The notes under the pieces were generated by a model, which saw only the letters and a program-made list of their open reading frames with translations, did not search any database and was not told the origin of the DNA. The translations under genes were made by a program, and so were the position numbers. Below are positions 30,738 to 31,581 of a stretch of 64,000 nucleotides of DNA, one piece after another (position 1 is the first letter of the stretch; every line of letters starts with the position of its first letter). Source of the DNA: Candidatus Phosphoribacter hodrii (lineage in GTDB: Bacteria; Actinomycetota; Actinomycetes; Actinomycetales; Dermatophilaceae). The stretch spans positions 718,791-782,790 of the forward strand of contig JADJIB010000001.1 in NCBI GenBank assembly GCA_016707175.1. Direction: 5' to 3'.

Positions 30738-31581
30738 CGGCGGGGGGGGGGGCGGCCCGGGGGGGCGGGCCCCCGGGGGGGGCGGCCCCCCCCCCGCCCC
30801 CCCACCGGGGGGGGGGGGGCGGGGGGGGGGGGGGGGGGGGGGCCCGGGCGGGGGCCGGCCGCGGGCCGGGGCCCCGGGGGGCGGGCCGGGGGGGGGGGGC
30901 GGGGCCGGGGGGGGGGGCCGGGCGGGGGGGGGGGGGGGGGGGGGGGGGTCCGGGGGGGGGGGGGGGGGGGGGGGGGGGGGGGGGGGGGGGGGGGGGGGGG
31001 GGGGGGGGGGGGGGGCCCCCGGCGGGCGGGGGGCGGCCGGGGCCCCGGGGGGGGGGGCGGGGCGGGGGGGCCCCCCCGCGGGGGGGGCGGCCCGCGCGGG
31101 GGGGGGGGGGGGGGGGGGGGGGGGGGGGGGGGGGGGGCGGGGGGGGGGGGCGGCCCCGTGGGAGGGACCGCGGGGTGGGGGGGCGGGGGGGGGGGGGGGG
31201 GGGGGGGGGGGGGGGGGGGGGGGGGGGGCGCGGGGGGGGGGGGGGCGGGGGGGGGGGGGCCGGGGGGGGGGGGGGGGGGGGGGGGGGGGGGGGGGGGGGG
31301 GGGGCGGGGGGGGGGGGGGGGGGGCCCGGGCCCGGGGGGGGGGGGGGGGGGGGGGGGGGGGGGCGGGGGGCGCGGGGGGGGGGGGGGGGGCCGGGCCCCG
31401 CCGCCGCCCCGGGCGGGGGGGGGGGGGCGGGGGGGGGGGGGCGGGGGCGCGGGGGGGGGGGGGGGGGGCGGGGGCGGCGGGGGCCGGGGGGGGGGGGGGG
31501 GCCGGGGGGGGGGGGGGGGGGCCGGGGGGGCCCGGGGGCGGCGGGCCCGGCCGGCCGGGGGGGGGGGGGGGGGCCGGGGGG
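30738..31581. repeat. About 840 bp of near-pure G with scattered C runs (only about 10 A/T bases) on the + strand
   Basis: Read directly. It starts 5 nt after the stop of the ligase gene and ends about 100 nt before the DUF308 gene start. Confidence 0.95.

Follow-up and report, generated by a model that had tools for sequence, protein, structure and literature searches.

The locus considered here raises the question of whether a long stretch composed almost exclusively of G and C, lying between two intact genes of Candidatus Phosphoribacter hodrii, is bacterial DNA or a product of the way in which the genome was put together. The window, i.e., the whole stretch of DNA that was analysed, comprises 64,000 nt and corresponds to C1:718791-782790 of a 3.91-Mb, 21-contig assembly with a GC content of 69.6%. 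A G/C-only, mostly poly-G tract had been described within it, and such a tract does exist: positions 30738-31581 hold 844 nt (682 G, 156 C, 3 A, and 3 T), and ordinary sequence is found again from 31582. The original prediction put the number of A/T bases at about ten; the island and the isolated A30804 and T30949 that it named are in place, but the count is six, the others being T31159, A31163, A31167, and T31176, and it stays at six over the 845 bases of 30737-31581. The uninterrupted G/C-only blocks span 30737-30803, 30805-30948, 30950-31158, and 31177-31581, and the longest runs are one of 64 G (30952-31015) and one of 10 C. Altogether 80 G runs, 78 C runs, and the six A/T bases compose the tract, which rules it out as single-letter scaffold-gap filler; the pure G and T blocks found elsewhere in the assembly would fit such a filler. 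Six-frame translation yields approximately 70% Gly on the plus strand and approximately 70% Pro on the minus strand, in keeping with the poly-Gly and poly-Pro frames noted earlier. At 70% GC, the probability of encountering six or fewer A/T bases in 844 is approximately 1e-118; the tract is thus no statistical fluctuation, and the sole question is whether it is DNA or artefact. Taken as a whole, the data indicate that it is almost certainly a non-biological artefact of long-read metagenome assembly, written in place of real DNA. This verdict draws on a genome-wide class of 41 such tracts, on the ordinary sequence carried by conspecific assemblies at three tract sites, on the location of those sites at strain-level breakpoints, and on strand bias.

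The surroundings of the tract were delimited by comparison with independent assemblies, which places the non-homologous block at 30742-31573 (832 nt). L025 and L026 are short-read-style contigs reached via a 96%-identical DUF308 protein, and L028 is the locus of the sister assembly GCA_016705565.1, found through an identical ligase protein; exact look-ups of DUF308 and LigT returned no match. The features of the interval are as follows.

29309-30733, plus strand: intact gene for an AMP-binding acyl-CoA synthetase/ligase of 474 aa, with its stop TGA at 30731-30733; Pfam PF00501 and PF13193 are found on the identical GCA_016705565.1 protein, and the gene order is the same in L025 and L026.
30734-30741, no strand: the final real bases to the left of the junk, GGACCGGC, which agree with L028 (GGACCGGCCGCTCGGGG...) and not with the deletion haplotype of L026 (GGTGGGACAGCC).
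30742-31573, no strand: the 832-nt block, G/C-only save for six A/T, almost certainly junk that replaces real sequence; judged by its composition and by the 422 nt (L028) or approximately 2 nt (L026) present at the site, with a homologue found nowhere.
31574-31681, plus strand: the real spacer upstream of DUF308, beginning GGGGGACAGCCTGA, which aligns to L026 3866-3971, L028 4856-4937, and L025 3101-3143.
31682-32257, plus strand: intact gene for a DUF308 (HdeD-family) membrane protein of 191 aa, with PF03729 homologues, the best 96% identical.

The GGAGG at 31670-31674 is the ribosome-binding site of the DUF308 gene, which starts with the GTG at 31682, and GGGGGACAGCCTGA, with the stop TGA at 31586-31588, corresponds to the 3' end of the alpha/beta-hydrolase gene that L025 carries.

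The tract is one of many. Low-complexity tracts number 41 in the assembly, total 15,338 nt, and are spread over 9 contigs, and the uninterrupted homopolymers include G x1772, G x1021, G x351, T x1044, and T x708. We know of no replication system that keeps uninterrupted homopolymers on the scale of a kilobase, and of no sequencer that reads them without error. Perfect kilobase homopolymers are not credible as bacterial DNA; the whole class of 41 tracts is artefactual, and the studied tract, with its mix of G and C, is typical of the class. The tracts are, moreover, strongly oriented on the plus strand of the contigs, with 30 being G/T-rich, 3 C/A-rich, and 8 balanced (p = 1.4e-6), and each of the 12 pure runs that reach 100 nt consists of G or of T. 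The plus strand of a contig is arbitrary, and such a bias therefore points to a process that acts in contig coordinates. It is counted as supportive rather than decisive, since an order-wide scan found a genus with balanced orientation.

At the locus itself, comparison with conspecific assemblies provides ordinary sequence where the window has the tract. L026 (contig k141_1422490) matches the window over 26904-30735 at 98.0% identity and over 31576-32507 at 97.2%, with the same gene order, and has 106 nt between the ligase stop and the DUF308 start (...CACCTGAGGTGGGACAGCCTGATCGG...), leaving approximately 2 nt in place of the junk. L025 carries 3.8 kb between the ligase and DUF308 (L025 2167-5968), holding an Abhydrolase_3 gene and a P-type cation ATPase gene. 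The two contigs diverge directly after TGAGG, which is where the tract starts, and the 106-nt spacer of the deletion haplotype (L026 3866-3971) retains the last 13 nt of the hydrolase gene. The interval is thus polymorphic within the species, with the 3.8-kb Abhydrolase_3 and ATPase haplotype on the one hand and a clean deletion on the other. L028 is closest to the window on the left side, where its positions 1-4433 align to 26309-30741 at 99.08% identity (blastn), the alignment ending at 30741; on the right it matches 31574-34169 at 97.3%. The junk site of the window (832 nt) is occupied in L028 by 422 nt of ordinary sequence (G162 C148 T64 A52, longest homopolymer 6). These 422 nt (L028 4434-4855) correspond to the Abhydrolase_3 gene, shortened by dozens of scattered small deletions and 96% identical to L025 in the aligned columns. 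Judged from the sequence, this pattern looks like a failed consensus rather than natural decay into a pseudogene, in which case two long-read assemblies of the species would be damaged at the same gene. The comparison assemblies are strains 97-99% identical to the window and not the same DNA, such that a strain-specific insertion at the studied site is made improbable, rather than formally refuted, by them. Further downstream, L028 5535-7260 and window 32279-34003 differ by 42 gap columns, and the minus-strand gene located there is one frame of 574 aa in the window and two genes (321 and 245 aa) in L028.

More distant relatives were also read at this slot. In six other species of the genus, the ligase gene is followed by a spacer of 40-80 nt, an alpha/beta-hydrolase gene of approximately 305-320 aa (HGGG...GDSAGG), and then the minus-strand gene that lies downstream in the window, and the longest homopolymer in that interval is at most 7. 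Within the genus, the DUF308 gene is unique to this species; the locus being variable and DUF308 species-specific, the true spacer was not recovered by orthology within the genus. A comparison of the ligase-DUF308 spacer in related genomes had been proposed at the outset, and the sequence it brings to light is ordinary, with no G tract at the ligase locus in L025, L026, L028, or the 14 genus relatives read. In the window, the left edge GGACCGGC is of the L028/L025 type and the right edge consists of the last 13 bases of the hydrolase gene, and on these grounds the real content under the tract is most likely an alpha/beta-hydrolase (Abhydrolase_3) gene or a remnant of one. Two earlier expectations are affected by this reading. 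The view that no gene is interrupted is probably wrong, as a hydrolase gene or remnant occupies the slot in the sister assembly and in the six other species, and the hidden sequence, which had been taken as intergenic, is more likely that gene or its remnant than a short intergenic spacer. Neither the hydrolase/ATPase segment nor the 422-nt remnant has a copy elsewhere in the assembly, and an alternative haplotype that would hold the missing hydrolase/ATPase and lipase segments was not found on another of its contigs.

If a hydrolase gene lies beneath the tract, it is possible that the tract is a scrambled rendering of that very gene, produced where base-calling fails for a physical reason such as base modification, strong secondary structure, or a stall. 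The length of the tract (832 nt) is close to that of spacer plus hydrolase gene (about 950 nt), and in a global alignment to the L025 hydrolase region none of the 78 rotated or reversed controls reached its score. The sister long-read assembly also appears corrupted at exactly the same gene, with dozens of scattered deletions, and the sole A/T island of the tract falls at approximately the relative position of the GGTGGGACC motif in the real sequence. However, 5 of 78 controls reached the score when L028 was used, which is not significant, the first 110 nt of the tract align no better than its other pieces, and unrelated tracts score equally well or better against the same gene. Tract length is, in addition, unrelated to real length at other sites, where 44 nt became 1790 and approximately 2.6 kb became 725. 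A scrambled hydrolase gene is therefore regarded as unlikely, if still worth some weight. A broader proposal is that the DNA of 30742-31573 is physically unusual, for example as a heavily modified or strongly structured hydrolase gene or as a real G-rich insertion, so that nanopore base-calling would fail on it each time. The apparent corruption of two independent long-read assemblies at exactly this gene would then have an explanation; the proposal is nonetheless considered highly improbable.

The assembly-artefact reading was examined further at other members of the class. The flanks of 12 other large tracts were joined with the tract removed and compared with 3 relatives. At 5 of these 12 sites the relatives are then colinear, 3 sites giving a single alignment across the junction and 2 a matching spacing (283 vs. 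278 nt for the G x1794 tract; 209 vs. 262 nt for the T x1044 tract). None of the relatives has a tract at an orthologous site. A search of five junctions in the relatives for a trigger revealed no common hairpin or motif, the sites being poorly conserved intergenic DNA. The organism is frequent in public metagenomes, and two further sites could be compared with conspecific assemblies. At C1:558341-560130 (G x1790), two independent contigs that match at 98-99% and without gaps on both sides have 44 nt instead of the tract, a spacer that separates a gene for a Fur-family regulator from a THAP4_heme-bd gene. Within those 44 nt, two additional conspecific contigs (L033 and L035, JGI) are joined to an integrase-bearing element with three tyrosine-recombinase-type genes and DUF6262. 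The 725-nt tract at C2:750426-751150 stands where four independent assemblies carry 2295-2817 nt that include a GDSL-lipase/LGFP-repeat gene (637 aa); the length of this region varies among the four, and two of them show scaffold gaps. The GDSL-lipase/LGFP gene was found nowhere in the window's own assembly. Low-complexity runs were absent from the 8 conspecific loci at these two tract sites. By sequence comparison, then, the tracts are shown to replace real sequence with lengths that bear no relation to it, and strain-level structural variation has a breakpoint at 3 of 3 tract sites checked, among the 41.

These sites also bear on whether the tract could be real, i.e., a long, G-quadruplex-prone insertion carried by this strain downstream of the ligase gene and belonging to an intergenic family that short reads cannot cross. 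In favour of this reading, the tracts avoid coding sequence: by a crude GC3-based gene map only 14 of the 41 tract junctions are in coding regions vs. 75% of the genome being coding, with many tracts located within 30 nt of a gene end; this avoidance may simply mean that strain-variable junctions are mostly intergenic. The recurrence of tracts in several species of the genus likewise speaks for a real element. However, the class also includes G x1772 and T x1044 without any interruption, and short-read contigs of conspecific strains pass through three of the tract sites in ordinary sequence and without a seam. At two sites the tract takes the place of real genes or spacers, which are missing there; orientation follows the arbitrary strand of the contig, and no relative carries a tract at an orthologous site. 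Genuine G-quadruplex or phase-variable poly-G tracts resemble the block in being G-rich, intergenic, and strand-asymmetric. Real phase-variable tracts are, however, approximately 7-20 nt long and are found at orthologous places in related strains, whereas the block extends over 832 nt, conspecific strains lack it, and some other members of its class are homopolymers that run for a kilobase without interruption. A real G-quadruplex tract, which the original prediction had kept as its second reading, is thus not supported and is given next to no credence.

With the tract taken as an artefact, the software step that wrote the junk is one that we infer, and the following model is proposed. At sites of structural difference between co-occurring strains, a given haplotype would be spanned by few reads, and the contig backbone there might come from a single faulty nanopore read or from a consensus that failed, as when a stalled signal is called as a homopolymer without end. 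Polishing would then fail, as normal reads could not align across the junk, and the unpolished stretch would be kept. Some observations are left unaccounted for by this mechanism, namely the G/T-only composition, the forward-strand bias, and the avoidance of coding sequence; the bias is not predicted by simple carry-over from randomly oriented reads, and it is missing in another genus of the order. Judging from accession ranges, the sister assembly GCA_016705565.1, and perhaps the present genome, may derive from an activated-sludge MAG project. A pipeline of this kind employed early flip-flop base-calling, CANU with corMinCoverage=0, and Racon with --include-unpolished, and its short reads came from the four-colour HiSeq X (PMC8012365). 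Such settings would let junk stretches survive. More generally, long-read metagenome assemblers have been reported to output sequences with no real existence, to make haplotyping errors, and to handle poorly those sites at which subpopulations differ (Trigodet et al., bioRxiv 10.1101/2025.04.22.649783). The phantom sequences of that study are like the tract in comprising hundreds to thousands of bases without counterpart in the organism, in lying at loci variable between subpopulations, and in creating spurious ORFs or removing real ones; they differ in that the data were PacBio HiFi, and G/C-only or homopolymer junk is not described there. A search of the literature on poly-G in long-read assemblies and on GCA_016705565.1 revealed nothing specific.

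An alternate scenario would place the origin of the junk in short reads, with dark-cycle poly-G reads from two-colour Illumina instruments drawn in at hybrid polishing or gap filling and extended around a poly-G loop. G is the dark base in two-colour chemistry, and its artefactual G runs are, like the tract, without biological basis. One-letter runs do resemble a self-loop in a k-mer graph, and the tracts are located at points that an assembler would take for a break. However, two-colour poly-G is limited by read length and consists of G only, whereas the tracts reach 1.8 kb, include pure T blocks, and stand in megabase-scale contigs. Short reads are far shorter than blocks of 832-1790 nt, dark cycles are not called as pure T x1044 or T x708, and a tract of 80 G runs and 78 C runs is no loop. 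Poly-G reads would map equally well as poly-C, which leaves the plus-strand bias unaccounted for, and the pipeline of what is probably the project of the sister assembly, itself only presumptively linked to this genome, used four-colour reads. Low-signal short-read poly-G, one of the causes suggested originally, cannot alone produce blocks of this length or blocks of poly-T, and only a slim chance is left to a short-read origin, whereas the more general suggestion of an artefact of base-calling or assembly, with the true sequence hidden beneath it, is borne out by the 41-tract class and the ordinary sequence in conspecific assemblies.

The distribution of G x40 across related genomes provides a further view of the assembly artefact. 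G x40 was found in 9 of the 20 genomes of the genus and, within the genus, is abundant only in low-contig assemblies (3-30 contigs), the fragmented ones having none or marginal numbers. The assemblies concerned are as follows.

G000: 21 contigs; G x40 forward/reverse 4256/89.
G007: 30 contigs; G x40 forward/reverse 1889/208.
G006: 5 contigs; G x40 forward/reverse 304/0.
G002: 10 contigs; G x40 forward/reverse 289/0.
G008: 3 contigs; G x40 forward/reverse 219/0.

Two other low-contig assemblies of the genus (G014 and G018) have zero G x40, so that long-read assembly alone is not sufficient to generate it. Among 201 sampled genomes of the order, 32 have G x40, and forward bias is common there without being universal. 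Five genomes of genus g27 in the same order (G039, G083, G102, G120, and G154) each have hundreds to thousands of G x40 positions, with approximately equal numbers forward and reverse, a balanced pattern for which another pipeline or another cause may be responsible.

For the biology of the organism the consequence is small, in that there is no G-quadruplex element at the locus. The genome is, on the other hand, the representative of its species, and it has at least three junk blocks where conspecifics have real sequence, the contents replaced being a hydrolase gene or remnant, a 44-nt spacer, and approximately 2.5 kb with the GDSL-lipase/LGFP gene. Since junk replaces real sequence, gene-content and pseudogene calls are unreliable near the 41 tracts and near the smaller corrupted patches. 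The artefact will recur in genome scans, and a simple filter for G/C-only blocks of at least 45 bases or homopolymers of at least 12 may be applied. If the link to breakpoints holds beyond the three sites, junk blocks would serve as flags of hidden population heterogeneity.

Corruption of the window is not confined to the tract, as two smaller patches were also found, and the G13 run in the first of them is a further member, of small size, of the low-complexity class.

49084-49126, no strand: corrupted patch with a G13 run (49095-49107), in which 61 nt are missing in 15 small deletions and approximately 100 nt of real sequence are represented.
49358-49455, no strand: corrupted patch in the 244-aa cation-efflux gene, in which 26 nt are missing in 12 small deletions.

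The first patch breaks the junction of two minus-strand cation-efflux genes. Three independent assemblies (L037, L038, and L039, at 99.1%, 98.9%, and 99.5% identity, respectively) agree with one another against the window at both patches, and the 244-aa and 303-aa cation-efflux genes of an HTH_5 regulator-CDF-CDF operon are intact in all three and broken in the window. Outside the two patches, the approximately 6 kb compared is almost without indels, and the frame breaks of the window are therefore clustered bursts rather than the expression of a general homopolymer error rate. The earlier remark that the window shows many homopolymer indels accordingly holds only in part: those present are concentrated in patches such as these and are not a feature of the flanks of the tract, where L028 aligns with 0 gaps over 4433 nt.

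A repeat of a different nature is also abundant in this genome. The octamer CGGCATAC occurs genome-wide in 2551 and 2550 copies on the two strands vs. approximately 70 expected per strand, and its 7-mer core GGCATAC/GTATGCC is present in 107 copies in the window. CGGCATAC is found in most of the intergenic flanks read, often as inverted pairs, and other species of the genus conserve it upstream of the start codon of their hydrolase gene.
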